Part shown: positions 7,721-27,143 of the stretch, in pieces
Layout: each line of letters begins with the position of its first letter
Numbering within the stretch: the stretch's first letter is position 1
DNA from: Vulcanimicrobiota bacterium
GTDB lineage: Bacteria; Vulcanimicrobiota; Vulcanimicrobiia; Vulcanimicrobiales; Vulcanimicrobiaceae
Direction of reading: 5' to 3'
DNA: 64,000 nucleotides
NCBI GenBank assembly: GCA_963714015.1
Contig: OY970223.1
Span: 1,152,001 to 1,216,000, forward strand
Notes under the pieces: model-generated
Database searches by the model: none
Seen by the model: only the letters and a program-made list of their open reading frames with translations
What the model was told of the DNA's origin: nothing
Program-made: the position numbers and the translations under genes

Positions 7721-8068
7721 ATGGGAAACCCGGTCGTTCACTTCGAGATCGTTGGAAAAGACGGGTCCGCGCTGCGCGATTTCTACAAGCAGGCCTTCGA
7801 CTGGACGTTCGAACCGGTCGGCGGTCCGATGGACTATTCCATGGTGCAAAACGCCGGCATCGGCGGCGGCGTCGGCCAATGCCCGCAGGGGGAAGAGGGC
7901 CACGTAACCTTCTACGTCGAGGTCTCCGACGTCATGGAGGCGCTCAAGAAGATCGAAGCGCTGGGCGCGAAAACGCTCAATGGCCCGATGCCCATCCCCG
8001 GAGGCGGACAGATTGCGCAGTTCGCCGATCCGCAAGGACAAATCATCGGACTAGTTCAGCAAGCGTGA
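7721..8068 (+). CDS. VOC/glyoxalase family protein
   Basis: MGNPVVHFEI...FY..AFDW, IAQFADPQG; AGGAGG RBS. Confidence 0.92.
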   Translation: MGNPVVHFEIVGKDGSALRDFYKQAFDWTFEPVGGPMDYSMVQNAGIGGGVGQCPQGEEGHVTFYVEVSDVMEALKKIEALGAKTLNGPMPIPGGGQIAQFADPQGQIIGLVQQA

Positions 8069-8084
8069 ATGTGAGGATCGATCG

Positions 8085-8561: not shown

Positions 8562-8593
8562 ACGATACAAAGGGGATTCTGCCCCGCGTGCCG

Positions 8594-8618
8594 CGCCGGC
8601 GAAAGGAAAGCCGGCGTT
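8594..8618 (+). terminator. Hairpin downstream of VOC operon
   Basis: CGCCGGC-gaaaggaaa-GCCGGCG. Confidence 0.45.
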
Positions 8619-8627
8619 GATGGCAAG

Positions 8628-8680
8628 GTAGGGGCGCTTCCCCATGCCGCAGGGGCCGCCCTAACGCTATGCTAGGGCCG
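8628..8680 (+). promoter_or_regulatory. Conserved box + -10 (leaderless promoter), module 1
   Basis: GTAGGGGCGCTTCCCCAT (8628-8645), 22 nt, TATGCT (8668-8673), 6 nt, GTG 8680. Confidence 0.7.
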
Positions 8681-9238
8681 TGCCAATCTCGGACGTCCTC
8701 GCCACGGTTTTGCTGCAGCGGATGCGCGATATGGATCGTGCCGAACGAAGTGTGCTCGATGTACGCATCGGTCATGGGTCAGCGGTTTCGGCTTGCCGTG
8801 CTGGCCGCAGCGACCGGACTATCGGAAGAACGCGTTCGCGCCGTGCTGGAGAAGGCCAGCGTGCTCCAATTCGTGATGTGCGAAGATGGGGAAAGCGATT
8901 GGTATGCCTTCCGCCACGCCTTAATTCGCGATATCGCGTACGAAGAATTTATCGGTAACCGCGTGCGTCCGATACACCGGCTTATCGCTCGCGCGCTCGA
9001 ACGCTGCGCCGATGCAAAGCACGTTCCGATCGACGATCTCGCGTACCACTCCTGGGCCGCCGGCGATGCCGAGCGCTGCGTGCGCTATAACGAACTTGCA
9101 GGCGATAGAGCCGCGGGGGCCTTTGCAAACCACGATGCTCGAATTTACTATGCGCGCGCGCGCGAGTTTGCAGACCCTAATTCCGAGCATTATCGCCGCT
9201 TGACCGGGAAACTCGTCCGGCTGCAACAGGACGGGTAG
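8680..9238 (+). CDS. Stand-alone winged-helix/arm fragment homologous to the middle of AAA-LuxR regulators (frameshift near 8760)
   Basis: MPISDVL..LLQRMRDM.. then YAFRHALIRDIAYEE..HRLIARALE..LAYHSWAAGD; paralog of 24555..25109. Confidence 0.8.
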
Positions 9239-9258
9239 CCGGCGTCACGCGCCGAAAA

Positions 9259-11962
9259 GTGCGCCATGAGGCCGTCGCGGTGATCGTACGACCCGTCCTT
9301 TGCCGTCCGTTCGTCGGCCGGCGCCCCGAACTTGCGTATCTTCGGGAACGGCGGCTCGAAGCGGGCGCTTCGCGCGGCAGTCTGGTCTTCATCGCGGGAG
9401 ACGCGGGGCTTGGCAAGTCTCGTCTTATCGCGGAGTTCAGCCAGAGCTTTGGCCTATTCTCGTTGGCGGATCGCGCGCGGGCCGTGCCGCGAGTTCGGCG
9501 GCCGTCCATACGGTCCGATCTTGGATGCGCTTTCGAGTGTCGATCGCGGCGCCGCGCAGATAACGCCGGCCGAATCCAAGCGTCAATACTTCGAAGCAAT
9601 CATCGAAGGCTTTGCGCACATCGCCTCGCGCCAAGCGTTGGTCATCATCATTGAGGACTTGCATTGGGCCGACGCAGCGACGCTGGATCTCCTGGCGTAT
9701 CTCGGATCGCAAGTGCACCGAATGCGCGTTCTCGTGCTCGCGTCGTTTCGTCCGGGCGACCTGCATGCCGGACATCCGGCAGCCGCCGGAATCGAGAAAG
9801 TAGGCCACGCAGCCCGCGCGGGCCGCGTCGATCTCGGTCCCCTCCAAGGGCGTCGAACTGCGCACGTTCATCGACGAGGCCCTTTCCGGTTTCACCTTGG
9901 GCCGGAAGAAAAAGCGGGCCATTGCCCTGGCAGGCGAAGGCAACCCGTTCTTTACCGAGAGAGCTGCTCAAGAACGCAGTTCAGGAAGCAGCAGAAAATC
10001 AACAATGCGACGACGACGGCCGAGTACCGCACAGCGTACGCACCACGCTGCTCGAGCGATTGCGTCCGTTCGAAAGTGACGACCGCCGAATCGTAACGCA
10101 GGCAGCCGTAATCGGCCGGACCTTCTCGCTCGACCTTCTCGCCGACGTCATCGGCACCGAGCCGGACCTTCTCGTTCCGGCACTGCGGCGCGCTCGCGAT
10201 TTTCAGCTGATCGAGGAACTCGCGCCGAGTCTGTTTCGCTTCCGGCATGGTCTTACGCGCGAAGCGATCTGCAGCGAGTTTCTTCGCACCGAATTGCGGC
10301 CGCTTCATCGCCGAATCGCGGTCAGTTTAGAGAACGCACTCACCGGCGAACGGTCGGTCGAAGCGCTCGCGTATCATTGGTGGGCCGCGGGCGACGACGA
10401 GTGTATCGTCCGGTGATAACGAATTGGCAGGCGATGCCGCACGCCAAGTATTTGCGACGACAATGCTATCGCATTTTACGAGCGCGCGTTGGAATCGAGG
10501 AAGGTCGAACCAATCGTGCAAGGTTCAATTTTAGAGAACATTGCCAATCTGCGATTGTGTCAGCATGGCTGAAGAAGGTCCGGCGACCGTATTCTCCGGT
10601 GGTGTACGTCTTCAAGGCTGCGCGGACCGTTCAAGCGGGAAGCGGTGTGAAGCACTAGTGGCGATGACTGCCTACAGAGCGATCTTGCCGGTAGGAGTGC
10701 TTCACTCGAACAAATGCTCGAACGTTTGGAGCCCGGCGAATATCTCGCTCGCGCTCGGCTTCATCTGGGCATCGCCTGGATTGCGCAGGCGTTGCGTTTT
10801 CCGTCGCGCGCAAGCGTCGCATCTCGCTCTGGTCGATCCTCGCGCCGCGGGGATGCGGCCGCGTTCGGTGCGGTATCACAACGTCGCAGCGCGTCACGCT
10901 GCGGCGCTCGGAGATGAGCAGGGTTTTCGCCGCGAGCAGCGGCTTGGCACGATCCAGCGCGCTCGCACGGCGCGGCGCGATACCGGCGTTTAATACAATG
11001 GAGCGGAGTTCTTCCCATCCTTCGGTTTCATGAAGAAGCGCGTCGAAAATATTCGCAAAGCGCTGGACGTCGCGCGCGAAAAGAAAGCCGGCACGTCGAA
11101 GAGGCACCTACGCCACGGCGGCGCTGGCCACAAATGAGCGGCGATTGGCAAGCGGCCCGCACTGCGGTCGAATCGGTTTCCACGACGTCCGATAACCGTG
11201 TCAATATCACGTTTCGACGGCTGCGGGAACCGCCGTTGGAACGTATCTCGGCGATGAGGCTTTGATCGAAAAATGGTGCGACGGATCGAAGATACGATGA
11301 CAATCGCTCCCGAGATCGAATGCGGGCACGGTTTCGCGGAAGTTCTCGTTCGCAGAGGCCGTCACAAGGATGCGCAGCGGCTGCTGCATCGCGTACTCCC
11401 AAAATGCGAAGTAGTGCGGGGAGAGGTTCTGATGCTGCTCGCGATAGCGCGGTACGGAGCGACGGAAGATCGTGTTCAGGCACGCGAATATCTCGCGCGC
11501 GCCGGCGAGATGGGTGATTCGCTCGAGCGTTGCGCGTTGGCGCTCTTCGATGCGATCTGCGCAGACGATCGCGAAAGCGCGCCGCGTTTGGCCTTTGAAG
11601 CAGCCGAGGGTTTCAAGCGTTTCCGAACGCCGCTTCTGGAAGCCGCCGCGCGCGAAATCGCCGGAGACCTCGATTCAGCCCTCGCGTTGTACCGTCGCTG
11701 CAGCGCCGCATACCACGTGCGTCGGCTCGAAGGAACCCGTCCGACCGGCAGCGATGCGCTCGCATCGCACGATTCTCCCGAGTTTTCGGAATTTTCTGCA
11801 CGTGAACGTGAAATCGTCGTGCTGGCCGCGAACGGCGAATCCAATTTAGAGATCGCACGCAGCCTTTCAATTAGTCATAAAACCGTCGAAAAGCACCTTG
11901 GCGCGGCCTATCAAAAGCTCGGCGTCTCCTCGCGGCGACAACTACGGTCCTACGTTAAGTAG
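9259..11962 (+). CDS. AAA-ATPase (STAND)/LuxR-HTH transcriptional regulator, multiple frameshifts
   Basis: FVGRR.EL, GDAGLGKS (Walker A), IIEDLHWAD (Walker B), GNPFF, C-terminal SAREREIV..SNLEIA..ISHKTVEKHL; colinear with 21821..24514. Confidence 0.88.
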
Positions 11963-11965
11963 AAA

Positions 11966-12011
11966 GTAGGGTCGCCCACCCATACCGCGGCACGCGCCGC
12001 TCCCGTACGAT
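11966..12011 (+). promoter_or_regulatory. Conserved box + -10 upstream of PQQ beta-propeller gene 1
   Basis: GTAGGGTCGCCCACCCAT (11966-11983), 22 nt, TACGAT (12006-12011). Confidence 0.7.
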
Positions 12012-12046
12012 GGCCTGGAACCGCTACTGTCGTGGCACCGGCCACC

Positions 12047-13449
12047 ATGAAGGGAGCATTCGCTGTGAGGCGAATCTTACAAAAAATCGCAACAACCACG
12101 GTCCTGCTCGGATTTCCCGCACTTGCAGCCGGCTGCTCGCCGGGCGGTGCCGGGGGCACACCGGTGACCCCCGCGTCGATCCAACTCTCGCCGCGAACCT
12201 TTGCGGCGCAAACGGCGAACTTCTCTCCGGCCCCGGTACTGCGCCATGGCCGCAATTCGGCTACGGGGCCGGCCATACCGGATTCAATCCGCTCGAGACG
12301 ACCATCACCACTCAGAACGTTTCGAACCTACAGGTGGCCTGGAACGATCAGTCGATCGTTCAAGCCGGCGGAATCGTTGTGGACGGCGGCGTCGCCTACG
12401 TCGATGACATGGGCCAATCCAACGCGGGGCTTTATGCGCTTGACGCAACGACGGGCGCGCAGAAGTGGTATGCAAACGTCAGACTCAACGGCGCGTGGGG
12501 CAACTTCACGCATGCGGTTTCGGCGATTTCCGGCAGTATCGTGGTGACACCGTGCAGCAACGGCTCATCCACGGCGTTCCTCACCGGGCTCTGCGGCGTC
12601 AGCGTGACAACCGGTAAGATTATGTGGCGGAGATACTGCACGGAATATCAAGGCAATCCGTGCGGCGGTCTGGTCGGCGGCGGTTCATCTCCGACCCTGT
12701 ATGACGGACGCATCTTTTTTCAGAGCACGCAAGGCGTGAACGAACAGCCCGATACCCAAGCACTCAATCCGAGCACCGGCAAGATCCTTTGGGATGATGC
12801 CGGCGTGTACCGCTGCCCGGACGCCGGCGAATCGAGCTCCGATCCGCTGCCGGCCGGAAACGGACTGGTTTATGCGGTTCTGGGTTGCCAAGGACAGAAC
12901 GGCGCGACCGAACTCTGCGCGTTATCTACGGCGAGCGGAGCCGCCGCGTGGTGCGATCCATCGCAGCCTTACGTCCAGAACATGATCCTTGCCAAGGGCG
13001 AGCTCTACGTGACGGAACAGGGCAATAATGACGAAGTCGTGCTGGCGCTCAACGCGAAAACCGGCGCACAGTCGTGGACCGCGTCGCTGCCGGGCGCAAA
13101 TGGATGGGGCTCGATGGCCACCGCCGGCACAACGCTTTACGTTGAGGACGGCGGAGCCGGTGTGTTCGCACTGGGAACGGCCACGGGTCAGACGCTGTGG
13201 AGTCAGACGTCGAACGCGAATCTGTACGACGGGGGCGTTATCTCGGTCGCAAACGGCATCGTGTACACCGACGGCGGCGGCGGCAACAACGGCAATTACG
13301 CGATCGATGCGTTCAATGCAGCAACCGGCAGCCTTATCTGGTCGAGCAGCGCTATTGGAAACGGCGCTGCGGAAATGACGCCGGTGATCGTCAACGGCAC
13401 CGTGTACGCCGGCTGCTACACCGTGTGCGCCTTCAGGGTAACGGCCTGA
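12047..13449 (+). CDS. PQQ-binding-like beta-propeller lipoprotein (frameshift near 12240)
   Basis: Lipobox LAAGC; WPQFGY..GHTGFNP.E..I...NV.NL; repeated ALDA.TG..W. Confidence 0.88.
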
Positions 13450-14170
13450 TCGCTCGTCATCGGATTGCGGATCATGCAACTCACGATGCTTAGGCCCGCT
13501 GAATCTTTTATAGCGGAGCGCACATTTCGCGTTCTTGGAGGGAGGCCGGGCGGAGGCGCTGTAGGGTGTGCCTCGGCAAATTGAATGCCGGCCGTGCTCT
13601 TATCGAGAGGTCGCCGTTTGAAAATCCGGCCTCTCGCGTCTGCGCGCACGGAGCTCGTTGCGCGCGAGCAGGAACGCAACGTTCTTGCCGCGGCGCCGTG
13701 ATGCGGCCGACGCGCGTCTTAAGCGTTTCTGTGGCTGCGTTGGTAAACGCGGTGGTGAGCCTCACATTCCGCGCGCTCGACGAGCGATACGGCAAGAATT
13801 GGAGGGCGTCCGGCTCTTGCGGGGCGCTCCCCTCCATCGTTCCTTGCGGCGGCAGAGCAATGGCGGCGGGAAGGGGTATCGCGTAATCCGCATTCCCGGC
13901 TGATTTCGGTCAGAGTGTGGATTGCCGGTGGCCTCGGCTCTGCACGTCTTTTGCTAATGCTAGATATCAACGTGATGGTCACCGTTCCGGTTATCGGAAG
14001 GGCTCCGATTAGGTAAAGGGATTCCACAAGCCCTGTACCATTCTGCTGCATTGGAACGTGGCGCAAAAGCGCCAGATCTATTTGCCTTCATAGGTCTGAC
14101 GGCAGCCTTTCGCGGGCTGCTCTTTGAAGAAGGCCAGACGCTCCGGTCGTTCGGTTATAGAGGAGGTTTT

Positions 14171-15160
14171 ATGGCAAGTATTATCGTGCCGTCCGATGAG
14201 AATGGCCTCATTCTGGATCCCGCCGTAAATAACATTATTAGTCAAGCCGTAAATGTTCAACCCTTCGGGTTCGAAGACGTCATCGTGTTTTCTCACGGGT
14301 GGTCTACGAATGCCGATAGCGCAATGGATGATTACGCTATCTTTTCAATTGGCCTTGCACGGACTATGTTGTTGGCGGGCACCGCCACGCCCGGGATTTT
14401 GCCTAGTCCGCCCAGATCGTCTCTCGACATCGGCATTCATTGGCCATCGGAAATCACGGAGGACTCCAGTAGCCCGCTCACTGCTCTGCAGCTATTTACG
14501 TTCTACAAAATGGAACACCGCGCCGATGCTGTCGGCAAGAACCTTGTCTATAGCGTGCTCCGTATTGCTCTTCAAGCTCGTCAGACATCCGGACCGGTGC
14601 GATTCTTATTGCTTGGTCACAGTTTCGGTTGCAAAGTCATCTGCTCCGCGCTCCAAGATCTGGCGATCGATATCTTAGATAATAGCCTCACGGTCCCGGA
14701 CGGATCGACTTGGCGAGTTGTTCTCTTGGAACCGGCGACTGATTATGACAACCTTGAGCCAAACGATATCTACGGATCCCTCAGGGAGATCGCAAGTTTG
14801 CGATTGCTCATCACCACCTCCCAAGAAGATAGGGCACTCAGCCAATGGTACCTGGACGCGGCTCGTATCGCGAATCTTTTTCACGCGCAAGACCCAACGC
14901 CGGCGCTCGGCGCCGTGGGCCCGTCGAAAGACACCGTAGCGGCTTTTGGCGGCGTGGACGCCATAGCGGTCAATACCGACTTCACTATACCTATGATTAC
15001 TGCGACGACACATCAGTTAGTCATCGCCGACCTTACGCCGGTACATCAGGCGCGTCTAGCATGTGTCCCACCTTCATACGCAGGTGGTTTATCCGGTTCG
15101 CATTCCGACATTTATTTTGAGCAAATCTATAATCTCGTTGGGGGCTTTCTGTTCTCTTAA
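14171..15160 (+). CDS. Alpha/beta hydrolase-fold protein
   Basis: AGGAGG RBS; VFSHGW, IHWPS, nucleophile elbow GHSFG, C-terminal HSDIY; lower GC than neighbours. Confidence 0.75.
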   Translation: MASIIVPSDENGLILDPAVNNIISQAVNVQPFGFEDVIVFSHGWSTNADSAMDDYAIFSIGLARTMLLAGTATPGILPSPPRSSLDIGIHWPSEITEDSSSPLTALQLFTFYKMEHRADAVGKNLVYSVLRIALQARQTSGPVRFLLLGHSFGCKVICSALQDLAIDILDNSLTVPDGSTWRVVLLEPATDYDNLEPNDIYGSLREIASLRLLITTSQEDRALSQWYLDAARIANLFHAQDPTPALGAVGPSKDTVAAFGGVDAIAVNTDFTIPMITATTHQLVIADLTPVHQARLACVPPSYAGGLSGSHSDIYFEQIYNLVGGFLFS

Positions 15161-15579
15161 AACTACTTGTTGCAAATCACGGTGAACGAGATGCCATTAG
15201 TGCTGTCGCTCACGTTCCTGTGGCTTGCAGTGCTAAACGCCGTGCGGCATCGCGCTCCGTTGATTCCGAGCGCCCAAAACGGCCGTAAAGCTGCGGGCGA
15301 GAAATTGCAAGAATCGCCGCTACTGGAACTCCGCGCTCGATCGATTCGTTCAAAGCAATCCGCCGCTAGCGACAGATCGCCCGGGCGTTATTGCGCCGAA
15401 ACAGCGCGAGATCCCAATAGCGCCGATTGGCGCTATTTATATTCATCGTTCGGGATCGGTATCGCGACGAAAAATTGCGCGCTGATGCCCTTGACCAGAA
15501 AATAGACGTGTTGCTCGCGGGCGCCGCAGTTCCAAGGGAGTTTCGGCTGGCGCTACCTGCGCCCGTGGCCCAAACCAGC

Positions 15580-15794
15580 GGCATGATGCCGAAGTGTTCG
15601 GCGGGATGATCGTCTCGACCGTACTCAATCTTATTTTCGTGCCCGTGCTGTACGTGACGTTCGCAGCAATGCGCAAGCGCGCGACGTTACAAGTCGCGTA
15701 CTCCGGCTCGCATGCCGCGCCTGGTAACGGAGCCAAGGTTCACAGTGAGAGCGGCGCTGCCGCGAACTTCATCTCCGGCGGGGAGGTGGACTGA
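15580..15794 (+). pseudogene. C-terminal remnant of RND efflux permease
   Basis: VFGGMIVSTVLNLIFVPVLY matches the last TM of the AcrB family; no upstream part. Confidence 0.7.
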
Positions 15795-16096
15795 GCGATG
15801 TTCTCGGCGCATCAACAAAATTATTTCATCGCTGGGGTGTGCTTGTGGGAGCAGCCGCCGCACAAAAAAGCCGCATAGGCACATTCGCCTCCCGTTCCGC
15901 GGACAGCGCGAAAGGCGCCAAGAGTTCGTACGAGCTTCATGCTGAGCGCTCCCTATAAGCAGTGTGTTTGCTCTAAGGTGCGCCCGCCGGGCGCCCGCGT
16001 ACTGCGAGGAACCACCACTTTTACGGTTAGCGCGTCGTGACGCACCCTACGGGTGGCACGCCGTCAAGGTCGAAGGCTCCCGCAGAGGGACACGCC

Positions 16097-17893
16097 ATGT
16101 TAGGTACCGTCGCCCAACCGCTTTCTCCAAGCCGGCATTCGTCGCGGACGAGCGCAACACGCTCGCTCCTTGCCGTAATAATGCTGGTCGCAACGATTCT
16201 GTTCGTGTTGTTCGACAGCGCGGCATTGATTACGGTCTGGAAAGGATGGATTCAATACCAGGGCGTTGATTTTACGCAGCAAGGCGCAAGGGTCGTTGTC
16301 GCCGACGTCACGGACCCAACGTTGTATCGGCGCGGCGTGCGGCCCGGACAAACGATCGGCTGGCGCGGGCGCTCCGAGTGGCGCGCGGCGTTTCCGCGGC
16401 CGGGTGACACCGTGCAAGTGAATACCCCTTCCGGCCGCGTACCGGTTCGCGCGGCGTATCAGCGTTTTTCGCCGGCCCTTGCCGCTGTTGCGCTAATCAG
16501 CATTTTGGGCGCCATCGCGGTGCTGATCTTCGCCGGCATTCTGTGCTACCGAAAACCGGGCATCCTAACGATAGCGTTCTGGTTGTTCGTTGCCACGGAC
16601 TTCAACGTCGGGTGGCTCATGAACGTGTACGCTCAAGCACCCGAACCTGCAGGCTACGTTCTCGTCCTGTTCGTCCTGGCGGTCCTTGGTGGTTGGGGGT
16701 ATTATCCGCTCGTGTGGTTTGCGCTGCGCTTTCCCGACGATCGCATTAACGGCAGGGCAATGCGCATTGCAGACTACTGCTGGACGGCGATAAGCGTAAT
16801 AGCACTGGCGTGGTTCCTCTACGATCTCTCGCGCGCGACGTTCCCGGGAGCGAGCCCCAGCGTGCCGATGCAGAACCAATTTTGGCGCTATACGCTTCCG
16901 CAAAACATTCCGAATGTCACCGCGCTCGTGGCGTTTCTTTGGGTGTACGGGCGCTCTACCGAAGCGGCGCGGCAACGCGCACTGTGGGCGATCGTCGGTT
17001 TTATGTTGATGATCGCGTTCGAGACGATTGGCAACTTCGCGTCGGAAATTGCGCCCGGACTCTATCTTATCGGCAACATCGCCCTCATGCTCGCAGCCTT
17101 CTGCCCTCTCGCGCTCGTGTATGCCGTGCTGCGTCATCACCTCCTGGACATCTCGTTCGTCGTGAACCGAGCCCTCGTGTACACGGCGCTAACGGCGCTC
17201 ATCGTGCTCGTCGTCGGCTTCGTGGACTGGCTGGCGGGCAAGTACCTGTTCGAGACGCGTGCCGCTTTAGCAGTGGAAGCGACCGCGATCATCGGTCTGG
17301 GTTTTTTGCTGCAGCGCGTTCACGGTGCGCTGGAACGTGCGGTCGATCGCCTTATTTTTGCATCCCGTCATTCGGCGGAACGCCATATTGAACGAGTTAT
17401 CGCCGGGCTCGCCTTCGCGCAGACGCATAATGCGATCTTGAGAGCGCTTGTAGAAGAGCCGCGCGTTGCGCTGGATCTCACCTCTTGCGGCATATTCATC
17501 GACGGTGCCGCCGCTTTCACGCTCAGGTTCGAATCGGGCTGGACGATTGACGAGGGCGCAAAAATCGAAAGCGACGACCCGTTAGCGCGATTACTGCATT
17601 CGGAGCGGCGGCCCATCAGCATCGCAGAGGCGCATTGGCAGCCGACGATCGGGGGCCTTGCCGCCGGAACTTTGGATATTGCAATGCCGCTCTTTTCGCG
17701 CAATCATCTGCTCGGCATGGCGCTCTACGGAAGGCACCGCAACGGATCCGCAATCGATCCCGAAGAGCGCAATCTCCTGTACCGCCTCTGCGAAGCTGCG
17801 GCGGTTGCTTACGAAGCAGTCGAACTCAGCCGTGCGCGCGAAGAAGTCGCAGCGCTGCGTTCGCAGCTTGCAGTTCGCCTTCCGGCGGAGTGA
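16097..17893 (+). CDS. Multi-TM membrane protein with C-terminal GAF-like domain
   Basis: FALRFP, YAVLRHHLLDI..V.NRALVY, PLFSRNHLLGMALYG.HRNG..IDPEE..LL..L; paralog of 27144..28823. Confidence 0.8.
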   Translation: MLGTVAQPLSPSRHSSRTSATRSLLAVIMLVATILFVLFDSAALITVWKGWIQYQGVDFTQQGARVVVADVTDPTLYRRGVRPGQTIGWRGRSEWRAAFPRPGDTVQVNTPSGRVPVRAAYQRFSPALAAVALISILGAIAVLIFAGILCYRKPGILTIAFWLFVATDFNVGWLMNVYAQAPEPAGYVLVLFVLAVLGGWGYYPLVWFALRFPDDRINGRAMRIADYCWTAISVIALAWFLYDLSRATFPGASPSVPMQNQFWRYTLPQNIPNVTALVAFLWVYGRSTEAARQRALWAIVGFMLMIAFETIGNFASEIAPGLYLIGNIALMLAAFCPLALVYAVLRHHLLDISFVVNRALVYTALTALIVLVVGFVDWLAGKYLFETRAALAVEATAIIGLGFLLQRVHGALERAVDRLIFASRHSAERHIERVIAGLAFAQTHNAILRALVEEPRVALDLTSCGIFIDGAAAFTLRFESGWTIDEGAKIESDDPLARLLHSERRPISIAEAHWQPTIGGLAAGTLDIAMPLFSRNHLLGMALYGRHRNGSAIDPEERNLLYRLCEAAAVAYEAVELSRAREEVAALRSQLAVRLPAE

Positions 17894-17919
17894 CGGCCGC
17901 TCCACGGTAAAAGAGTCCG

Positions 17920-18450
17920 CTAAGGTGCGCTCGGCGAGGGAATGTCCGCGGTCTTCAGATTGATGCGAAAGGCAGGACCGGCCGGACCACCCTGATCCAC
18001 AAGCAGAACCTTCGTCGGCGAATAATCGGCCGGTAATACGAATTGCATGGTTTCCCGCGCCGCGGCGCCCGGTTGCAGCGAGTAGAATGCGCTGTAGACG
18101 GTCACCGGTTTACCGTCAACGACCACGCCGTCAGCATCCGCGAGCGATCCCGCAAAGTAGCCGGTGCGTTCGGATTTTGTGCCGTTGGAGACTAACCAGG
18201 ACAGCACGATAGCGCGCTGGCCGGTCACAGGCGTGAATTCCGCCGCAGTTGAGGGTCTTATCGCCATCTTTCGAATACGAATTTTTCCGTTGAACAACGT
18301 CGACGAAAGACTTCCACTTACTCCTGAAAGTTGATTTGCGCCGCCGGGAATGGGCTTAGGGGTGGCGGAGACGCCCGGCTGCGCGCTTGAGAGCACGAGC
18401 CCAATCGTGGCAAAGCTAAAAAGCATTGCGAGAGCAATAGTGTTTTTCAT
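17920..18450 (-). CDS. Hypothetical secreted protein (Ig-like/DUF4352-like)
   Basis: Signal peptide; L.DADG...LQPGAA...F.LP pattern. Confidence 0.6.
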   Translation of the reverse strand: MKNTIALAMLFSFATIGLVLSSAQPGVSATPKPIPGGANQLSGVSGSLSSTLFNGKIRIRKMAIRPSTAAEFTPVTGQRAIVLSWLVSNGTKSERTGYFAGSLADADGVVVDGKPVTVYSAFYSLQPGAAARETMQFVLPADYSPTKVLLVDQGGPAGPAFRINLKTADIPSPSAP

Positions 18451-18569
18451 GAGCTCACCCTAACAGGGCAATCTTCCGGAAGCAATGAGCCAAAATGCTG
18501 ACTCACCGGAGTGAGACGCGTGCGCTTGCCCGCTTACGCTGGGGCCCGCGTAAGGTCTTGCACGTCACC

Positions 18570-19616
18570 TTATTGCGCCGGCTCGGATGTGAGCACCATG
18601 CGGAATCGCGCTTTCCCGCTCAACATGCGCTCGTAGGCCTCTTGCGCGCGTTCGAGCGGCATCGTTTCGACCAGCGGCCGCACACCGGTAAGGACCGCGA
18701 ACCGCATCGTTTCTTCCGAATCGACGCACGTTCCGGAAGGCCAGCCTTTAATCGAAAGCCGCCCGCCGATCATTGTCGCTGTATTCAGTTGCATCGGTTC
18801 GTGCGCCGCGCCGAGCACCAACATCTCACCGTCGATGCGCAATCCGCCGAATGCCGCTTCCATCGCTTTGGCGGACGTCGCCGTGAACGCGATGACCTTC
18901 GCGCCGCCGAGCCGCTGCAGTTCCGCCGCAACGTCCGCCCACGTGGAGTCGATGTAATGATGCGCGCCCAATTCGCGCGCCAGCGCCGCTTTGTCTTCAC
19001 CGCGCGCGATGCCGACGGTCTCAAATCCCATCTTTGCCGCGAATTGAATCGCCAGATGTCCTAAGCCGCCAATGCCGAGCACCGCAACGAGATCTCCGGC
19101 GCGTGCCGGCGAATGGCGCAGTGAGTTATAGGTCGTGACGCCCGCGCACATCAGCGGCGCCGCTTGGGCCGCGGAGAGGTCGTCCGGGATGCGTGCGAGT
19201 GCGACGGCCGGAGCGATAACATACTGCGAATATCCGCCGTCGTAAGCGAAACCGGGAATCTGCAAATTTCGGCACGCGAGAAAATCGCCGCGACGGCAGC
19301 GATCGCACGTGCCGTCGTGACCGCCGTGCCATCCGACGCCGGCGCGATCGGCGATCTTCCAACCGGAAACGCCGTCGCCGAGCGCATCGATGGTTCCGGC
19401 AATCTCATGACCCGGCGCGCGCGGAAAGACGATGGCCGGCCAAGCGTTATTGACCGCCATGAAATCGCTGTGGCAGATTCCGCACGCGTCGACTCGGATG
19501 CGCACAGTGCCTGGTGAAGGCTGTGGTATAGGGAGTTCGTACCGTTCGAGGCGATGGTCGTCCGCCGACGGCACGCGCATCGCGAGCATGGTCCTCGTTG
19601 CTGATTGAGTAGGCAT
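18570..19616 (-). CDS. Zinc-dependent alcohol dehydrogenase (AdhP-like)
   Basis: CGICHSD, PGHEIAG, CDRCRRG, APLMCAGVT, GIGGLG, GKARFRMVL. Confidence 0.95.
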   Translation of the reverse strand: MPTQSATRTMLAMRVPSADDHRLERYELPIPQPSPGTVRIRVDACGICHSDFMAVNNAWPAIVFPRAPGHEIAGTIDALGDGVSGWKIADRAGVGWHGGHDGTCDRCRRGDFLACRNLQIPGFAYDGGYSQYVIAPAVALARIPDDLSAAQAAPLMCAGVTTYNSLRHSPARAGDLVAVLGIGGLGHLAIQFAAKMGFETVGIARGEDKAALARELGAHHYIDSTWADVAAELQRLGGAKVIAFTATSAKAMEAAFGGLRIDGEMLVLGAAHEPMQLNTATMIGGRLSIKGWPSGTCVDSEETMRFAVLTGVRPLVETMPLERAQEAYERMLSGKARFRMVLTSEPAQ

Positions 19617-19710
19617 GGCCTCATCAACCGTCGCCCATCACCGGCGGTTTCATGCCATGCTCGCGTGTACGATACTTCGCAACCACGAGTAGCGCCGTCC
19701 GAGTATTACC

Positions 19711-19922
19711 GCTATTGATACGTTAACAGATCCGGCCGCGGCGAAAACCGCATCGCGTCGGCAGCGGAGAACATGTCGACATCCTGATGATAGAACAGCT
19801 TTAGTCCGATGAACGCGCCATGGCGGTCCTCGCTTAAGAGTCGATACTTACTCATCTTTCCGGCGCGCGATCCGAATCCGTCGACGTGACTCGGCTGCAC
19901 GTCGAGAATCAGCAGACCGTGT
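19711..19922 (-). pseudogene. Internally deleted partial duplicate of gene 20888..21772
   Basis: 19711-19889 matches 20887-21065 (10 substitutions by manual count); 19892-19922 matches 21353-21383. Confidence 0.85.
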
Positions 19923-20088
19923 AGCCTATGAAATGTGGACACTACGTACAAGGCGGCGGTTCAAACGACTACCCGCCGCGATGTCGTCTTAGTGCGCGCA
20001 CCGCAGCCTGAGTCCCGCGGTCCTGGGCGGCCCGCTTCATGGACTTTCACCCTAAGGATTAACCACCGCGGAGCAGGAATTCCACCGC

Positions 20089-20769
20089 GTGCGCGACTTT
20101 CGACAAGCGCGGGAACGGCGTCGTTTCTACTTGGAGCGCGGCATGAAGCGGACTCCGCGGGGAGCAGGCAGCGACCTGACGTTCCTTATGACGCTCCCTT
20201 TGGCGGAGGTAGAATTGCGTCCTGAAGACTTCGGAGACGTTCCGGCATTGGTCGTTGGCGGTGTGGCGGCGCGCGCATATGCGCCGGAGCGGCACACCAA
20301 GGACATCAATTTCCTAATTGAGCACGAGCGATTCCCTGACGCGAAAGCGCGGCTACGCGGCCTGGGATATTGCTTTCTGCGTTCGCTCGCGTTTCCAAAT
20401 ACGGGATTAGGTCTCTATGGCGAGGCGTACTCGAAAGAGCAAGTAGAAGTTGACATAATTTCGAGTCCGCAAGAATGGTGTCGGCAGGCCTTCCAGGGCC
20501 GTGTCGAAGACCGGACCGGATTGCGCGTTATTCCGCTAAGCTACTTTGTTCTCATGAAATTAGACTCCGCCCGAGGCGTGGATCAGGGTGATCTGACGCG
20601 CGTTTTGGGACGGCTAAATGAAAATGAAATAGAACAGTTGGTCGCGGTGACTGGAAAGTACTCGGCAGATCCTGAAATTGCGGAAGACGTGCGTCAATAC
20701 GCAGCCCTTGGCCGCTGGGAATTAGAATCTGAGCCGCAAGATCAGCAGGGTCGGCCTGGCGACAAATAA
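20089..20769 (+). CDS. Nucleotidyltransferase family protein (Pol-beta superfamily)
   Basis: VVGGVAARAYAPERHTKDINF, VDII, LMKL..ARG.DQGD. Confidence 0.75.
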   Translation: MRDFRQARERRRFYLERGMKRTPRGAGSDLTFLMTLPLAEVELRPEDFGDVPALVVGGVAARAYAPERHTKDINFLIEHERFPDAKARLRGLGYCFLRSLAFPNTGLGLYGEAYSKEQVEVDIISSPQEWCRQAFQGRVEDRTGLRVIPLSYFVLMKLDSARGVDQGDLTRVLGRLNENEIEQLVAVTGKYSADPEIAEDVRQYAALGRWELESEPQDQQGRPGDK

Positions 20770-20887
20770 ATCTTGCGCTTCTGTCCCATTTTGTGGTATC
20801 CAACCGGCGAACGGGCGCTGAAGCCGAATTGTTAATACTTCCATGCTCATCGACACCACCGCTAAGCCCGGGCTGAAGCATCTACGG

Positions 20888-21772
20888 CTATTGATACGTT
20901 AACAGGTCCGGTCGCGGCGAAAACCGCATCACGTCGGCAGCGGAAAACATGTCGATATCCTGCTGATAGAACATCTTTAGTCCGATGAATGCGCCGTGGC
21001 GGTCCTGGCTTAAGAGTCGATACTTACTCATCTTTCCGGCGCGCGATCCGAATCCGTCGACGTGAAAAACGATCGCCAAATCTGGCCGAATTCGTACACG
21101 CTCGCGCCCCTGTATCATGTCGCTCGTAAATTGATGGATGATAAGAAGTTTCTGCGGCAAGCGGTACTGCCTGATCAAGCTGGAGAGATAGGCCGATACC
21201 GCGTTCACCGTAGCCGCGTTCGTGCTCCCGATTACATCTCCGGGCACTTGACCCGGACCCATGCTCCACTCCGAATCCATCGCGAGTGATACGTCGGGCT
21301 CTCGCAAAAAGCGCTCGAAGCGCTCGACATACGGCAAGAACGGCGCGCGGCCCGGCTGCACGTCGAGGATCAGCAAACCGTGTGCGCTGCGAATTATGTC
21401 GAGATACCGCTGCACGGTATCGTCGTCAATCGCAGCGCTATATGCATTGTTGATTCCCGGCGAGCGTTGCGCGACCACCGCGATCAGTTCGAAGGCTGGA
21501 ATGACGGGTTCTCCATACCGCGCATACGCCTGTGCCGTTCCCTCGAGTTTCGGCAAGATTGTCGCAGGCGACGCGGTTCCCAAAATTCCCATGGCAGGGA
21601 CGCCCGCCGCGCCGTAATAAGCGACGACGCGATGCCCCGGAAAGAGCACAGGCGGCGGAAAGGCGGTAGCGCGCGGTGTGGGAGACGGCGAGCGTGCTAT
21701 GCGATGGGATGGTGCGGCGCAGGCCGTCAGTGCGAGAGTTGTGATGAGAACGAACGCCGCCGTACGTTGCAT
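20888..21772 (-). CDS. Conserved lipoprotein
   Basis: Lipobox LTAC; RVVAYYG, PAFELIAVVA, LILDVQPG, PQKLLIIHQF, HVDGFG, GLKMFY. Confidence 0.8.
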   Translation of the reverse strand: MQRTAAFVLITTLALTACAAPSHRIARSPSPTPRATAFPPPVLFPGHRVVAYYGAAGVPAMGILGTASPATILPKLEGTAQAYARYGEPVIPAFELIAVVAQRSPGINNAYSAAIDDDTVQRYLDIIRSAHGLLILDVQPGRAPFLPYVERFERFLREPDVSLAMDSEWSMGPGQVPGDVIGSTNAATVNAVSAYLSSLIRQYRLPQKLLIIHQFTSDMIQGRERVRIRPDLAIVFHVDGFGSRAGKMSKYRLLSQDRHGAFIGLKMFYQQDIDMFSAADVMRFSPRPDLLTYQ

Positions 21773-21820
21773 GCATGCTTCATTCCCCGCATTGTGCGGA
21801 CGACACGTCGGCGGCCCACG

Positions 21821-24514
21821 TCACGTGGCAAGGTACGGACCGATGTGGCTGCGCGACGAGATACTGAGCTTTCGGTAGACGGATGCCAGGTGCTTCTCAA
21901 CCGTCTTGTGCGTTATCGAAAGACTATGCGCAATCTCCAAATTGGACCGGCCGTTTGCGGCGAGTGTAGCGACTTCGCGTTCGCGCGCCGAAAGCGTCGC
22001 GACGGCACCGTGCCCGGTCGGGCGGTCGGTTTCGAGTCGGCTGATGTCATACCTTGCGCCGCAGCGTCGAAATAGGACGAGCGCTGCTTCGATATCGCCC
22101 GCGACTTCAAGCGCGGCGGCCTCGAGAAGGGGAATTCGAAGGCGCCGAAAACCCTCGGCCGCTTTCTTCGCGAGCGCGGCGGCTTCGTCTTCGCGTGCGG
22201 TCCGCAAGCACACGATCGCATCGAACAAAGCAAGTGTGGGGGCCTCGGGCAATTCATCCGACGTATCTGCCGCTCGGACGAGGTATCCGCGTGCACGTGA
22301 CCGATCTGCCGCCTCACCGTAGCGCGCCAGGGCGAGCATCGTTAGCGGCTCGCCCCGCACCATTTCGGCTTTGGGAAGTGCACGGCGCAGCAGCGCAGCA
22401 GCGTCGTGGAGCCGGCCGCGGCGGACCATGATTTCGGCAAAGCCATAGCCGCACTCGATTTCCGGGGCCGCGGATATTGTGCTTTCGAATCCGTCGAACC
22501 ATTTGTGGATCAAGGCTTCATCATCTAAATGCGCCCCGATGACGGTTCCCGCCGCGGTCGCGAACGTCACATTAACGCGGTTGTCGGTCGTCGTCGGCAC
22601 CAGCTCGACGGCGGTACGAGCACGCTCGAGATCTCCGCTCAAGACATAGCAGAGCGCAGCCGTCGCATGAGCGCACTCTTCAGCGTGCCGGTTCCGCGAT
22701 TCGCGCGCGATCGCAAGCGCACGCTCGACGTTCTCGAGCGCTTCTTCATGCAGACCGAACGACGAAAAGCACTTCGCGCCGTTGTAGTGTGCGCCTGCGA
22801 CCGCCCCCGCGCCGCGCGAACGGGCCGCCTCGAGCCAACTCGCATGCTCGCGGCGAAAGCGAGCGACATCGCCAATCAGGGTGGCGACCCAAGTTGCGAC
22901 ATTGTGGAACCGAACTCGGATGTCGGACGCGATGTTAAGCGCCCGTGGATCGACTCGTTCAAGATGATATTCGGCCCGCGTAGGAGATCCTAATGTGGCG
23001 GCCAGCCAGGCGACGCCGCAATGGAGTCGACTTCGGGCCAAGTATTCATTGGAGTCTAGCCGTGCGAGCATCTCTTCCAAAGGGGCTGTTGTATCGGACA
23101 GGCTGATCGTGTAGGCAGTGATCGCCCCGCGGACTCGGCAGACGGCCTCGCGCTCGTGAGAACCCGCGCCACGAAACGCGTCGGCGGCGGCTCGGTACGA
23201 AGCCTCACCCTCCGCGGTCAACGTCAGCACGATACGGCGATCCGCAATCTTTTCCAGGATCGAGCCTCGTACGACCGCCTCGATGCCGGGTAACTCGAGC
23301 GCGCGTTCGTAGCAAGTAATGGCGTCCTCGTGAGCGTGGACGCGTGCAGCTTCGTCGCCGGCAAGCGCGTTATATCGGGCCGATCGCGCCGGGTCTCCCG
23401 CGGCCCACCAATGAAAACCGAGCGCTTCTAAAGAGCCCTTTTCTGACGCCGAGGTCTCGAGCGCCAGCGCGATCGCGCGATGTCGCGGCTGCATCTCAGC
23501 GTCGAGAACATTGCCGTAAATAGCCTCTCGCGTCAAGTCGTGGCGGAAGCGGAACAACCCGGCTCCAATTTCTTCGACGAGTTGGAAATCCCGCGCACGG
23601 CGCAAGGTCGAGAGCAACAGCTCTTCTTCGGTCTCCAGCGTCGTAGCGAGGAGCTGCAAGCCGAACGTGCGCCCGATCACCGCCGCTTGCGTCAGGATGC
23701 GTCTTTGAGCGTCGTCGAACGGGCGTAAACGCTCGAGCAGCGTCGCGCGAACCATCTGCGGAAGCTCGCGGTCTCTGGCAAAGCTGACGTGCTCCGAACT
23801 TTTCTCGACGGCGCTTTTGAGCAGCTCCTCGGTGAAGAATGGATTTCCGTCAGCCGCAAGCGCGACCGCCCGGCGCGTCTCTTCGGGTAACGCGATGCCT
23901 GCCAGCGCTTCGTCGATGAACGTTCGCAGTTCGGTACCGCGCAGCGGGGCAAGATCGATTCGACCCGCCCGCGCGTTTCGCGCGATCTTCGCGACGGCGA
24001 CAGTCGCGGGATTCTCCGAGTTAAGTTCGTCGGTACGGAATGACGCGATGACCAAAACGCGCATGCGCTGCAGTTTCGAGCCGAGATAGGCGAGCAGCTC
24101 CAACGTCGCCGCGTCGGCCCAATGCAAGTCTTCGATAACGACGCCTAGCGCGGTGCGTGAAGCAATCGAAGCTAAACGATCGATGATCGCGTCGAACTGC
24201 TCGCGCTTCGTCGCCGCGCCGAGCTCGAACGGACGTGTATCGACGCGCGCGAGCACGTCAATGATTGGTCCATACGGCCGGCTCGCGAACTCCAAGCAAG
24301 TGCCTTGACCGATTTTCCAGCGCGAGTACACCAGTGAGCCGCAGAACTCTGCGATCAATCGCGATTTGCCGACCCCGGCATCACCGGCGATTAGCACCAG
24401 GCCACCATGAGAAGAGGCCGCTTCGAGCCGGCGCTCGCGCAAATATGCGAGCTCCTCGCGGCGTCCTACAAATGGCCGGCAAAGCACAGGTCGGACGATC
24501 ACATCGGTCGCCAT
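21821..24514 (-). CDS. AAA-ATPase (STAND)/LuxR-HTH transcriptional regulator (intact, 897 aa)
   Basis: GDAGVGKS, VIEDLHWAD, GNPFF, winged helix FRFRH, TPR-like region, LSAREREVA..SNLEIA..ITHKTVEKHL. Confidence 0.93.
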   Translation of the reverse strand: MATDVIVRPVLCRPFVGRREELAYLRERRLEAASSHGGLVLIAGDAGVGKSRLIAEFCGSLVYSRWKIGQGTCLEFASRPYGPIIDVLARVDTRPFELGAATKREQFDAIIDRLASIASRTALGVVIEDLHWADAATLELLAYLGSKLQRMRVLVIASFRTDELNSENPATVAVAKIARNARAGRIDLAPLRGTELRTFIDEALAGIALPEETRRAVALAADGNPFFTEELLKSAVEKSSEHVSFARDRELPQMVRATLLERLRPFDDAQRRILTQAAVIGRTFGLQLLATTLETEEELLLSTLRRARDFQLVEEIGAGLFRFRHDLTREAIYGNVLDAEMQPRHRAIALALETSASEKGSLEALGFHWWAAGDPARSARYNALAGDEAARVHAHEDAITCYERALELPGIEAVVRGSILEKIADRRIVLTLTAEGEASYRAAADAFRGAGSHEREAVCRVRGAITAYTISLSDTTAPLEEMLARLDSNEYLARSRLHCGVAWLAATLGSPTRAEYHLERVDPRALNIASDIRVRFHNVATWVATLIGDVARFRREHASWLEAARSRGAGAVAGAHYNGAKCFSSFGLHEEALENVERALAIARESRNRHAEECAHATAALCYVLSGDLERARTAVELVPTTTDNRVNVTFATAAGTVIGAHLDDEALIHKWFDGFESTISAAPEIECGYGFAEIMVRRGRLHDAAALLRRALPKAEMVRGEPLTMLALARYGEAADRSRARGYLVRAADTSDELPEAPTLALFDAIVCLRTAREDEAAALAKKAAEGFRRLRIPLLEAAALEVAGDIEAALVLFRRCGARYDISRLETDRPTGHGAVATLSAREREVATLAANGRSNLEIAHSLSITHKTVEKHLASVYRKLSISSRSHIGPYLAT

Positions 24515-24554
24515 ATTCGCCGTACGGAGCTGCGAGCCTACCGTGGTTTCCTGA

Positions 24555-25109
24555 TTAGCGCTCGTCCATGACTCGCAGCTTCGTTGTCAGACGTTCGTAG
24601 GCGAGCGAATCGGCATCGAGCAGACTACGTGCGCGAATGTAGTATGTCCGGGCGTCATCCTGCGCATGGACCTCTGCGGCGTTGTCTCCGGCGAGCTCGT
24701 TGTAGAGCAACGCGCGCGCGGCATCACCGGCGGCCCAAGAATGGTACGCCAAGTCCGCGAGCGGCGCATTGACGGCGGCGCGCGCTCGTTCCAGCGCTCT
24801 GACAATGCTGCGGTGAAACGGACGAATTCGGGCCGCGGGGAGTTCTTCATAGATGATGTCTCGCGTGAGCGCATGGCGAAACACGTAGAACTCGCACGTT
24901 GGATTTTCCGCCGCGGTGAGTTGGAGTCCGCAGGCTTCCTCGAGTGCAGCCCGCACCTTCGATTCCGAACACGACGCGGTGGCAGTCAGCACGGAAACGG
25001 AGAAGCGACGGCCGATCGCCGCCGCCCGCATAAGGACGGCGCGCGCGCCGCGGTCCATGCGCCGCACGCGTTCGAGGACGCTGGATCGTAACGCGTCCGG
25101 AATATGCAC
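24555..25109 (-). CDS. Stand-alone winged-helix/arm fragment homologous to the middle of the adjacent regulator
   Basis: IPDALRSSVLERV..AAAIGRRF..FRHALTRDIIY..LAYHSWAAGD; probable leaderless GTG 25109, 6 nt after TATCGT. Confidence 0.85.
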   Translation of the reverse strand: MHIPDALRSSVLERVRRMDRGARAVLMRAAAIGRRFSVSVLTATASCSESKVRAALEEACGLQLTAAENPTCEFYVFRHALTRDIIYEELPAARIRPFHRSIVRALERARAAVNAPLADLAYHSWAAGDAARALLYNELAGDNAAEVHAQDDARTYYIRARSLLDADSLAYERLTTKLRVMDER

Positions 25110-25115
25110 AGCGTG

Positions 25116-25210
25116 ACGATAACGCAACGCCACGAGGCGCGGAATGGGGGGCTACCCTATCTTTTTGGGGGTGGCCCCCCCTACTGCGTCGTCGCCGCTC
25201 CAGTTAGCCT
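25116..25210. promoter_or_regulatory. Divergent promoter region with two conserved boxes, module 2
   Basis: Minus strand: ATAGGGTAGCCCCCCAT (25160-25144), 22 nt, TATCGT. Plus strand: TTGGGGGTGGCCCCCCCTA (25165-25183), 21 nt, TAGCCT. Confidence 0.7.
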
Positions 25211-25264
25211 TGGGCGAGACGGGCGCAACTTTGCCCTTCTCTTGTTCGAAGGAGAATAACGCAC

Positions 25265-26620
25265 ATGAGGACTTCTCGTTTCACGCAGTGCTCGCTTGCC
25301 GCGGCGCTGAGTTTGGTTTTTGCGGGGTGCAGCGGCGGCGGATCGCAGGTAACGCCGTCCGCAAATTCGGGCGTCATGTCCGAACCGCAAGTTGCCCAGG
25401 CGCGCACAATCTTCGAGCCCACTAGCACGCCGGTGAATTGGAGCCAGACGGATTTCAATTCTTCGCACATCGGCTTCAATGCGGATGAGAAGACGATCTC
25501 GACAGGCAACGTCGCCAACCTCAACTTCCTTTGGGGTCAGTCGGTGACCGATGGCGTCACGGGTTTCGCGCTCGTCAAAGGGACGATCTTTGCTCAAAGC
25601 TCGAATTCGTCGGGGCCTCCGATGCTCATCGCCCTGAACGCAACAACGGGAACTATTTCGTGGACGGCAAGAACAGGCGCTGATGGGTATCCCGAAAACG
25701 GGACGGTTGCTACCGGAGGGGGCGATGCGTACGTGGGCTGCGGGACTAAGGCGACGGGCAATCCCGGAGGAGTATGCGCTTTCAGTGAGGCGTCCGGGAA
25801 GCGACTGTGGGCCTACATTCCCGATTGTAAGTGTCAATTCAACGGTACCGTAGCGTCACCGCTGGTCTACTCGAACGGTGTCGTATACTATGGCGTAAGC
25901 GGTTTTCCGGGGCAATCGGATCCGTACGTCGTCGCTTTGAACGCGCAGACCGGAAAGCCGATATGGTCTTACGATCCCGGATCCGGAGCGCTCGGTAGTG
26001 CGCCTCTTGCCGTGAGTGGCGGGAACGTGTTCTTCGATTGCGTCACAGCAGGAAATGCCGAGGGGATCTGCGCCGTTAAGAACAGCGGCGGCTCCCTGTT
26101 GTGGCAGGCAACCACCGGAAATACGTCCACGGCATTCAGTATTGCGGCCGGCGTGCTTTACGCCAGCAACAATCAAGACGTCGTCGTCGCACTAAATGCT
26201 GGGACGGGAGCAGCGCTGTGGTCGTCCGCTGCCGCGGTCGGCAAGAGCGCATTTCCGCCCGCGATCGCGCTTGGCTCTGTTTACGTTGCGGGTAATACCA
26301 GCATTTCAGCGCTTAAGGCGACGACGGGAGAGCAACTCTGGTCCAATACGCTCGCGTGTTCGCCGGAAAGCTCCCCATCCGTTGCCAACGGCGTTGTTTA
26401 CGTCTATCAAGGTGGAAATAACTGCCCCGCGGTATCGGCCTTTGACGCTAAGACAGGGGCGCTGCTGTCGAGTATCACAACCTCAACTGCCTCGTTCGCT
26501 GTTTCGCCGGTCATCGCAAACGGAACCCTGTACGTCGCTGATGGTGTATGCGGAAGCCTCTGCGCCTACGTACCGAGTCAGGCGCTCAGACAGAGACTGC
26601 CGACGACCATTCTACGGTAA
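25265..26620 (+). CDS. PQQ-binding-like beta-propeller lipoprotein
   Basis: AAGGAG RBS; lipobox FAGC; WSQ.DFN..H.GFNA.E..I...NVANL; repeated ALNA.TG..W. Confidence 0.92.
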   Translation: MRTSRFTQCSLAAALSLVFAGCSGGGSQVTPSANSGVMSEPQVAQARTIFEPTSTPVNWSQTDFNSSHIGFNADEKTISTGNVANLNFLWGQSVTDGVTGFALVKGTIFAQSSNSSGPPMLIALNATTGTISWTARTGADGYPENGTVATGGGDAYVGCGTKATGNPGGVCAFSEASGKRLWAYIPDCKCQFNGTVASPLVYSNGVVYYGVSGFPGQSDPYVVALNAQTGKPIWSYDPGSGALGSAPLAVSGGNVFFDCVTAGNAEGICAVKNSGGSLLWQATTGNTSTAFSIAAGVLYASNNQDVVVALNAGTGAALWSSAAAVGKSAFPPAIALGSVYVAGNTSISALKATTGEQLWSNTLACSPESSPSVANGVVYVYQGGNNCPAVSAFDAKTGALLSSITTSTASFAVSPVIANGTLYVADGVCGSLCAYVPSQALRQRLPTTILR

Positions 26621-27074: not shown

Positions 27075-27143
27075 AGATCAGGATCGCTGACAGAACCGCC
27101 CTCCTGTCACGGCAGCGGTGTGCTGAATAGAATGCCTCAGGCG

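Follow-up and report, generated by a model that had tools for sequence, protein, structure and literature searches.

A 64,000-nt window of contig OY970223.1, part of a 3.56-Mb Eremiobacterota genome (G000), contains two gene modules, each with a STAND-class (signal transduction ATPase with numerous domains) regulator that ends in a LuxR-type helix-turn-helix (HTH) domain. Promoters in both modules carry a box of two G/C tracts set at a fixed distance from the -10 hexamer, and this candidate operator is the subject of the present analysis. Positions refer to the window unless they are given as genome coordinates. Module A runs along the plus strand and comprises small gene A (8680..9238), STAND-LuxR regulator A (9259..11962), a copy of the box, and the gene for a PQQ-like beta-propeller lipoprotein (propeller A, 12065..13449; PQQ_2 E 1.2e-31 in Pfam). 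In module B, small gene B (24555..25109) and the intact regulator B (21821..24514), which lies 40 nt past it, occupy the minus strand, while the gene for propeller B (25265..26620, plus strand), a PQQ-like beta-propeller protein with a signal peptide (PQQ_2 E 1.9e-31), is divergent. This gene content agrees with the first-pass annotation of the sequence, which had placed the boxes ahead of two small-gene/regulator units and two propeller genes.

Regulator B (897 aa) joins an AAA_16 nucleotide-binding oligomerization domain (NOD; E 2.4e-20 in Pfam) to a GerE-type HTH (E 1.6e-14). Regulator A is broken by at least four frame changes, and Pfam searches on its pieces give an AAA_16 NOD, a putative helical sensor and a GerE HTH; its N terminus is 79% identical to that of the orthologue at locus L010. 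Across 12 orthologues, G47, G49 and K50 are invariant columns of the AAA_16 domain, with the consensus GDAGVGKS. Pfam returned AAA_16, GerE and a weak TPR_12 match (23.7 bits, under the 30.1 cut-off) and no PAS domain in the regulators. The HTH of regulator B is of the canonical NarL/GerE type and is closest to the solved LiaR-like 4WT0, VraR, NarL and GerE domains. Box-associated regulators have the HTH stretch KTVEKHL in common; in response-regulator-type LuxR proteins encoded by the same genome, this place is taken by KTVKNHV or a similar stretch.

Box and -10 hexamer at the four promoters

Box 1 (GTAGGGGCGCTTCCCCAT, 8628..8645, plus strand) reads GTAGGG-N6-CCCCAT and belongs to the small-gene A promoter, where it covers approximately -52 to -35, with the -10 hexamer TATGCT (8668..8673, plus strand) 22 nt past it. 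Box 2 (GTAGGGTCGCCCACCCAT, 11966..11983, plus strand) lies 4 nt past the regulator A stop codon and upstream of propeller A, and is likewise followed after 22 nt by a hexamer, TACGAT (12006..12011, plus strand), which places the predicted start near 12018. Box 3 (ATAGGGTAGCCCCCCAT, 25160..25144, minus strand) belongs to the small-gene B promoter, where TATCGT (25121..25116, minus strand) stands 22 nt past the box and 6 nt ahead of the GTG at 25109. Back to back with box 3, box 4 (TTGGGGGTGGCCCCCCCTA, 25165..25183, plus strand) faces propeller B, with TAGCCT (25205..25210, plus strand) behind it and a predicted start near 25217. The distance from box 4 to its hexamer is 22 nt if the box is read as ending in CCCCCT and 21 nt otherwise, and box 4 can also be read as a box on the minus strand.

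A reading of the sequence recovers all four strings listed in the first-pass annotation and confirms its observation. Boxes 1, 2 and 3 fit (G/A)TAGGG-N5/6-CCCCAT followed by 22 nt and TANNNT, all three as strict pattern matches, whereas box 4 is a degenerate copy. The same annotation had seen no recognisable -35 element, and a consensus scan (at least 9 of 12 matches) bears this out, finding no canonical sigma-70-type -35/-10 pair at any of the four promoters. Between 8000 and 27000 the scan returned four sigma-70-like sites against 5.7 expected, none of them at these promoters, and the letters at the -35 hexamer positions are TGCCGC, TACCGC and TTCCGC. Given the 22-nt distance to the -10 hexamer and a start codon 6 nt further on, the box lies over the -35 region, with its centre at about -43. 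A dyad-like box of approximately 16 bp, in which the two G/C tracts are separated by about a helical turn, is found at three sites in the window, two further sites in the genome and 42 sites in the family.

Genome-wide and family-wide occurrence

The bare motif shows no over-representation: TAGGG-N5-8-CCCAT has nine matches in the 3.56-Mb genome, and a scan of the window that allowed two mismatches gave nine matches against 7.2 expected. Exactly 22 nt and then TANNNT follow five of the nine genomic matches. When the spacing was varied from 14 to 30 nt, five matches fell at 22 nt, one at 28 nt and none at the other 15 spacings, which upholds the fixed distance to the -10 hexamer claimed at first pass. 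Enrichment therefore holds for the full architecture only and not for the bare motif. All five strict sites of the genome adjoin STAND-LuxR genes, and the eight sites in total (the five strict ones, box 4 and two variants) all lie at four STAND-LuxR loci.

Relatives were searched with TAGGG-N4-7-CCCAT-N22-TANNNT, and the same pattern read backwards served as control. The family yielded 42 matches in 18 of 61 genomes (one of them in the unpublished genome G010), compared with a single match for the reversed control. A phylum-wide sample gave 50 matches in 25 of 72 family genomes versus one control match, and 7 matches in 79 genomes outside the family versus 15 control matches, which is chance level. 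The box architecture is thus restricted to one Eremiobacterota family, made up of uncultured soil bacteria, and is kept across genera. Among the 41 of these 42 family sites used for the neighbourhood count, a STAND/LuxR homologue lies within 7 kb of 30 and within 700 bp of 23; for random positions in G000 the figure is 3.9%. A frequent reading of the family-wide sites is TAGGGATTC or TAGGGTTTC followed by CCCCAT. Among the targets that Pfam could name are Kelch, Vgb-lyase-like and lactonase/NHL propellers, cupredoxins, DUF5069 proteins and a pro-kumamolisin peptidase.

The propeller promoters are conserved as well. The 17-mer TAGGGTCGCCCACCCAT of box 2 recurs ahead of propeller A orthologues in two other genomes (G072, locus L010, and G050, locus L026) and at the matching position in a third (G157), and a near-identical box precedes the propeller A orthologue of G011 (L003). 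Strict boxes stand back to back at loci L028, L033, L037 and L042, and one of the L033 pair faces a propeller gene. These back-to-back pairs, together with the divergent propeller at L033, suggest that box 4 is the degenerate counterpart of a real site.

Small-gene promoters and predicted leaderless starts

We aligned the small-gene promoters of 16 loci in relatives (L028-L043) with the two window copies, ungapped and anchored at the start codon. CCCCAT occupies -40 to -35 in all 18 promoters. All 18 likewise have TAnnnT at -12 to -7 and a start codon, GTG or ATG, exactly 6 nt past the -10 hexamer; both the hexamer and the start codon were required by the selection pattern. The spacer columns hold little information and drift between these fixed elements. 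A start codon 6 nt past the -10 hexamer would give leaderless mRNAs starting at 8680 and 25109, and the small-gene operons are probably translated from such messages. The starts predicted at first pass near these two positions coincide with conserved GTG codons at exactly this distance. The regulator follows approximately 50-70 nt behind the small gene at 13 of the 16 loci.

Small putative winged-helix/arm proteins

The small genes match no Pfam family, and their products share 41-42% identity with residues ~250-415 of regulator B, making them paralogues of its putative winged-helix/arm part. Small protein B (184 aa from the predicted leaderless GTG at 25109) has an AlphaFold2 model with a pLDDT (predicted local distance difference test) of 93.6, in which a winged helix is followed by a helical arm. 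The best Foldseek fold matches of this model are MalT (8BOB_C, TMq 0.56, at a weak E-value of 5.4e-3) and Apaf-1 (TMq 0.62-0.68). Small gene A starts at its own predicted leaderless GTG (8680) and contains one frame change at ~8740-8760; the N terminus encoded from 8680 matches the conserved orthologue N terminus, and the rest of the protein is 55% identical to small protein B. Homologues at 49% identity or more form at least 115 clusters of 120-262 aa, and of the nine clusters with an organism name eight are from Eremiobacterota and one is a partial 120-aa entry labelled Xanthomonadales. Public gene calls for these homologues are mostly 156-200 aa long; several, the window's own included, have 167 aa versus 184 aa when read from the GTG.

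In MalT, according to the available part of one report, the arm toggles between the nucleotide-binding domain and the liganded sensor, and serves both to lock the ATPase shut and to complete the inducer site (PMC4381067). Since the arm has this double role, a free-standing winged-helix/arm copy could modulate the switch in trans. By this analogy the small protein may act on the full-length regulator as a lock, decoy or co-sensor inside a positive feedback loop, a tentative proposal that we hold to be possible but not the likelier outcome. If true, it would represent a previously undescribed way to tune a STAND switch.

Other box-bearing loci and neighbouring genes

At a third STAND-LuxR locus, G000 has two further strict sites on the minus strand (genome 421019 and 420530), 489 bp from each other and ahead of a DUF5069 gene and a TTHB210-like/cupredoxin pair; one of these sites sits past the stop codon of the regulator, like box 2. 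This unit (L108 7089-9019; G000:C1:419089-421019) is conserved at L009 (3271-4919), downstream of a STAND-LuxR gene in both cases: past the stop codon of the regulator come a box, the DUF5069 gene, another box 489 bp from the first, a TTHB210-like gene and a two-domain cupredoxin gene. The 489-bp distance between boxes also occurs in G022, and in G172, where the comparison covers the boxes alone. Box centres resemble one another within a locus, with ATTCA/ATTCG at the third locus and TCGCCCA at propeller A. The third-locus centres (ATTCG/ATTCA) recur in boxes of G056, but these are divergent and approximately 1.5 kb apart.

Two variant sites, in which TAGGGTTTCCCCCAC is followed by 22 or 23 nt and TACACT or TACGCT, flank the fourth STAND-LuxR paralogue (genome 3325784-3328429). 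One of them (L109 3703-3745, plus strand; G000:C1:3325703) combines TAGGGTTTCCCCCAC, 22 nt and TACACT with an ATG 6 nt on that opens an 8-codon open reading frame (ORF). It lies at the 3' end of the paralogue gene and is directed antisense into it, and may drive an antisense transcript controlled by the regulator itself. G057 (L023 6396-18185; G057:C39) has a cluster of seven boxes within approximately 12 kb, ahead of NHL/lactonase-like lipoprotein genes and of two HTH-only LuxR genes (79 and 100 aa) that adjoin a full-length STAND-LuxR gene.

Within the window, a 294-aa ORF (20888-21772, minus strand) lies 48 nt past regulator B, has no Pfam family and no box of its own, and probably shares a transcript with the regulator. 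A few bases past its beginning, an ATG in a different frame opens a lipoprotein-type signal peptide. Membrane proteins of ~615 aa with a C-terminal GAF domain are encoded near each module (16037-17893, plus strand, and 27144-28991, minus strand; 26% identical). No box precedes either GAF gene: ahead of one, the string at 29008-29023 resembles a box but has no -10 hexamer at the right distance, and nothing similar was found ahead of the other.

Proposed mechanism and alternatives

Position, neighbourhood and analogy together make it probable that the box is a class II operator of the neighbouring STAND-LuxR regulators, one that would provide autoregulation and activate the propeller genes. In sigma-70-type promoters with a TAnnnT -10 hexamer and no -35 hexamer, the box would span approximately -52 to -35. 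The C-terminal GerE/LuxR-type HTH domains of the neighbouring regulators would bind it as a dimer, with one G/C tract per protomer and the CCCCAT half-site next to RNA polymerase, and the bound regulator would act as a class II activator. NarL/GerE-type HTH proteins bind inverted repeats as dimers. By analogy with MalT, oligomerization of the regulator would depend on signal and ATP. The predicted outcome is positive autoregulation of two leaderless operons, each consisting of the small winged-helix/arm gene and then the regulator, along with activation of the two genes for secreted PQQ-like beta-propellers. The box ahead of the two small HTH-only LuxR genes of G057 is a further pointer to self-regulation. 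The first-pass annotation had proposed this same role, which neighbourhood and conservation now support. It had also named, as a finding that would speak against it, a motif not enriched upstream of homologous modules. The opposite was observed, with CCCCAT, the -10 hexamer and the start codon kept in register at 16 of 16 small-gene loci (L028-L043) and in both window copies, and with the box present ahead of orthologous propeller genes at L003, L010, L026 and L033, and near STAND/LuxR genes at 30 of 41 sites against 3.9% of random positions.

Several observations weigh against this proposal. Box 4 differs from the consensus in each of its halves (TGGGG for TAGGG, CCCCCT for CCCCAT), and the symmetry of the box in general is partial, TAGGG against ATGGG making only a weak palindrome. 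In 4 of the 18 aligned small-gene promoters other letters stand in place of the distal half, TAGGG, which indicates that the promoter-proximal half, CCCCAT, is the more constrained one; the pattern that selected these promoters itself demanded CC, TAnnnT and the start codon, though not the whole of CCCCAT. Two other STAND-LuxR paralogues (genome 2426008 and 2189806) have no box nearby, and the regulator of the third locus has none upstream of itself. At 11 of the 41 family sites no LuxR gene lies within 7 kb, three of these sites being less than 1.6 kb from a contig end; the 11 are mostly ahead of secreted or lipoprotein genes. A search of sequencing runs with positions 20000-29999 found no RNA run that contains this DNA; the three DNA runs returned shared 0.10 or less of its words. 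Finally, regulator A is frame-broken in this assembly.

The last point has to be read against the quality of the sequence. All three module A genes contain frame changes (one in small gene A, at least four in regulator A and at least one in propeller A) and module B contains none. In propeller A the signal peptide (GTG at 12065) and the body (ORF 12010-13449) are in different frames, whereas the L003 orthologue is intact. The genes rpoB (G000:C1:2035484-2038733), rpoC (2063474-2066972) and gyrA (1029558-1031985) are also split between frames, so the assembly carries indel errors, and genes of this genome that look like pseudogenes have to be judged with this in mind; secA, uvrA and ileS are whole, and the assembly is a single contig with an estimated completeness of 89.6%. 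The density of frame changes in module A is several-fold above that in rpoB, rpoC and gyrA, yet the in-frame parts are 79-81% identical to an orthologue from another genus. The breaks in module A may reflect decay or local assembly trouble. Because of the indel errors, homopolymer lengths in the boxes, above all in box 4, are uncertain.

Another family-wide factor might read the box in place of the regulators, namely an alternative sigma factor that recognises an extended upstream element, or else a global regulator of another kind, which we consider unlikely. The strict orientation and strict distance to the -10 hexamer are what a sigma-dependent element would show, the LuxR HTH fold is related to that of sigma region 4 (Pfam gave Sigma70_r4_2 matches), and the 11 sites distant from any LuxR gene would be accommodated. 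However, the -10 hexamer is of the housekeeping TAnnnT type and the reach of the box to -52 exceeds the coverage of region 4. Furthermore, 23 of 41 sites lie no more than 700 bp from a STAND/LuxR gene, every G000 site is at such a locus, and no candidate sigma gene was seen beside the sites. The STAND-LuxR proteins could instead bind the box and repress, occupying the -35 region in a negative autoregulatory loop. A site over -35 can occlude RNA polymerase, and the sign of regulation is not readable from sequence; yet promoters with no -35 hexamer would be weak unaided. MalT and LuxR activate from a similar position. PAS-LuxR proteins, which also act from such a position, with a binding site at -35 in the available part of one report (PMC9774167), are described as activators in that of another (PMC6448028), and we regard repression as decidedly improbable.

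It is very improbable that the box lacks an operator function, whether as a relic of duplication, through chance similarity, or as an RNA hairpin or terminator. The two modules are indeed paralogous, as seen in their 55% identical small proteins and in the propellers and GAF proteins that both possess. Both module types are nevertheless old and occur in several genera, and only box, -10 hexamer and start codon have been kept, while unrelated genes (Kelch, Vgb-lyase-like, lactonase/NHL, cupredoxin, DUF5069, pro-kumamolisin) have the box ahead of them too. Chance is opposed by the reversed-pattern and spacing controls, which are near zero. As for RNA structure, GGGG and CCCC tracts can pair, but the four boxes fold no better than shuffled sequences (z 0.52, 0.29, 0.29 and -0.12) and no Rfam match was found within 8000-27000, and a hairpin or terminator was rejected.

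Significance

Eremiobacterota (WPS-2) abound in peat, in soils and in polar deserts; to our knowledge hardly any of them have been cultured, and their gene regulation has not been studied by experiment. The order of box, 22 nt, -10 hexamer and, for some genes, leaderless start would allow regulon prediction from metagenome-assembled genomes alone. In the regulon predicted in this way, STAND-LuxR regulators would control a set of secreted beta-propeller lipoproteins, cupredoxins and peptidases. Few of the large STAND-LuxR proteins have, as far as we know, an established operator, and a family-wide box with a matched HTH signature would be a useful, testable operator for the STAND field. The box may also serve as an orthogonal regulatory part, and through the small winged-helix/arm protein the arm-switch model of STAND activation could be probed by simple genetic means.

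Comparison with known systems

The box is probably best described as a lineage-specific LuxR-type class II operator with an unusually clean promoter grammar. A literature search on LuxR regulation in Eremiobacterota found no description of the box or of such regulation. MalT and the other regulators of its class (MalT/LAL) have an AAA_16 NOD, a winged helix/arm, a helical repeat sensor and a C-terminal LuxR HTH in this order, which is probably also that of the regulators studied here. MalT uses several asymmetric MalT boxes per promoter, in contrast to the one pseudo-palindromic box per promoter of the present modules, which also differ in that a separate gene ahead of the regulator encodes a free-standing paralogue of the winged-helix/arm part. 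The lux box and other class II LuxR sites are dyad-like, approximately 20 bp long and centred near -42, and they replace the -35 hexamer; the box described here is alike in position, with its centre at about -43, although the sequences are unrelated. Quorum-sensing LuxR proteins have an acyl-homoserine-lactone-binding domain where the regulators here have a STAND ATPase. The small protein has a parallel in TrlR of Agrobacterium, a truncated LuxR-type anti-activator that is a paralogue without a DNA-binding domain within the same circuit. It too is a shortened paralogue that could modulate a full-length regulator, but unlike TrlR it copies the winged-helix/arm part of a STAND protein and not a ligand-binding domain.

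The closest known operator is that of the PAS-LuxR (PimM-type) regulators of Streptomyces, given in the available part of one report as CTVGGGAWWTCCCBAG, 16 bp long and located at the -35 of its targets (PMC9774167). These regulators activate their target genes, as stated in the available part of a second report (PMC6448028). As far as these sources go, both boxes are palindrome-like elements of approximately 16 bp with a GGG...CCC core and an A/T-rich centre, placed in the -35 region, the PAS-LuxR box being bound by a LuxR-family HTH, the kind of domain that we predict to bind here. The two differ in their regulators, which in Streptomyces contain a PAS domain and here an AAA_16 NOD with a putative helical sensor. 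They differ also in the proximal half-site, TCCCBAG as against CCCCAT in a less symmetric box with an inner spacing of 5 or 6 nt, and in their hosts, Actinomycetota for the PAS-LuxR box and Eremiobacterota for the box of the STAND-LuxR modules.

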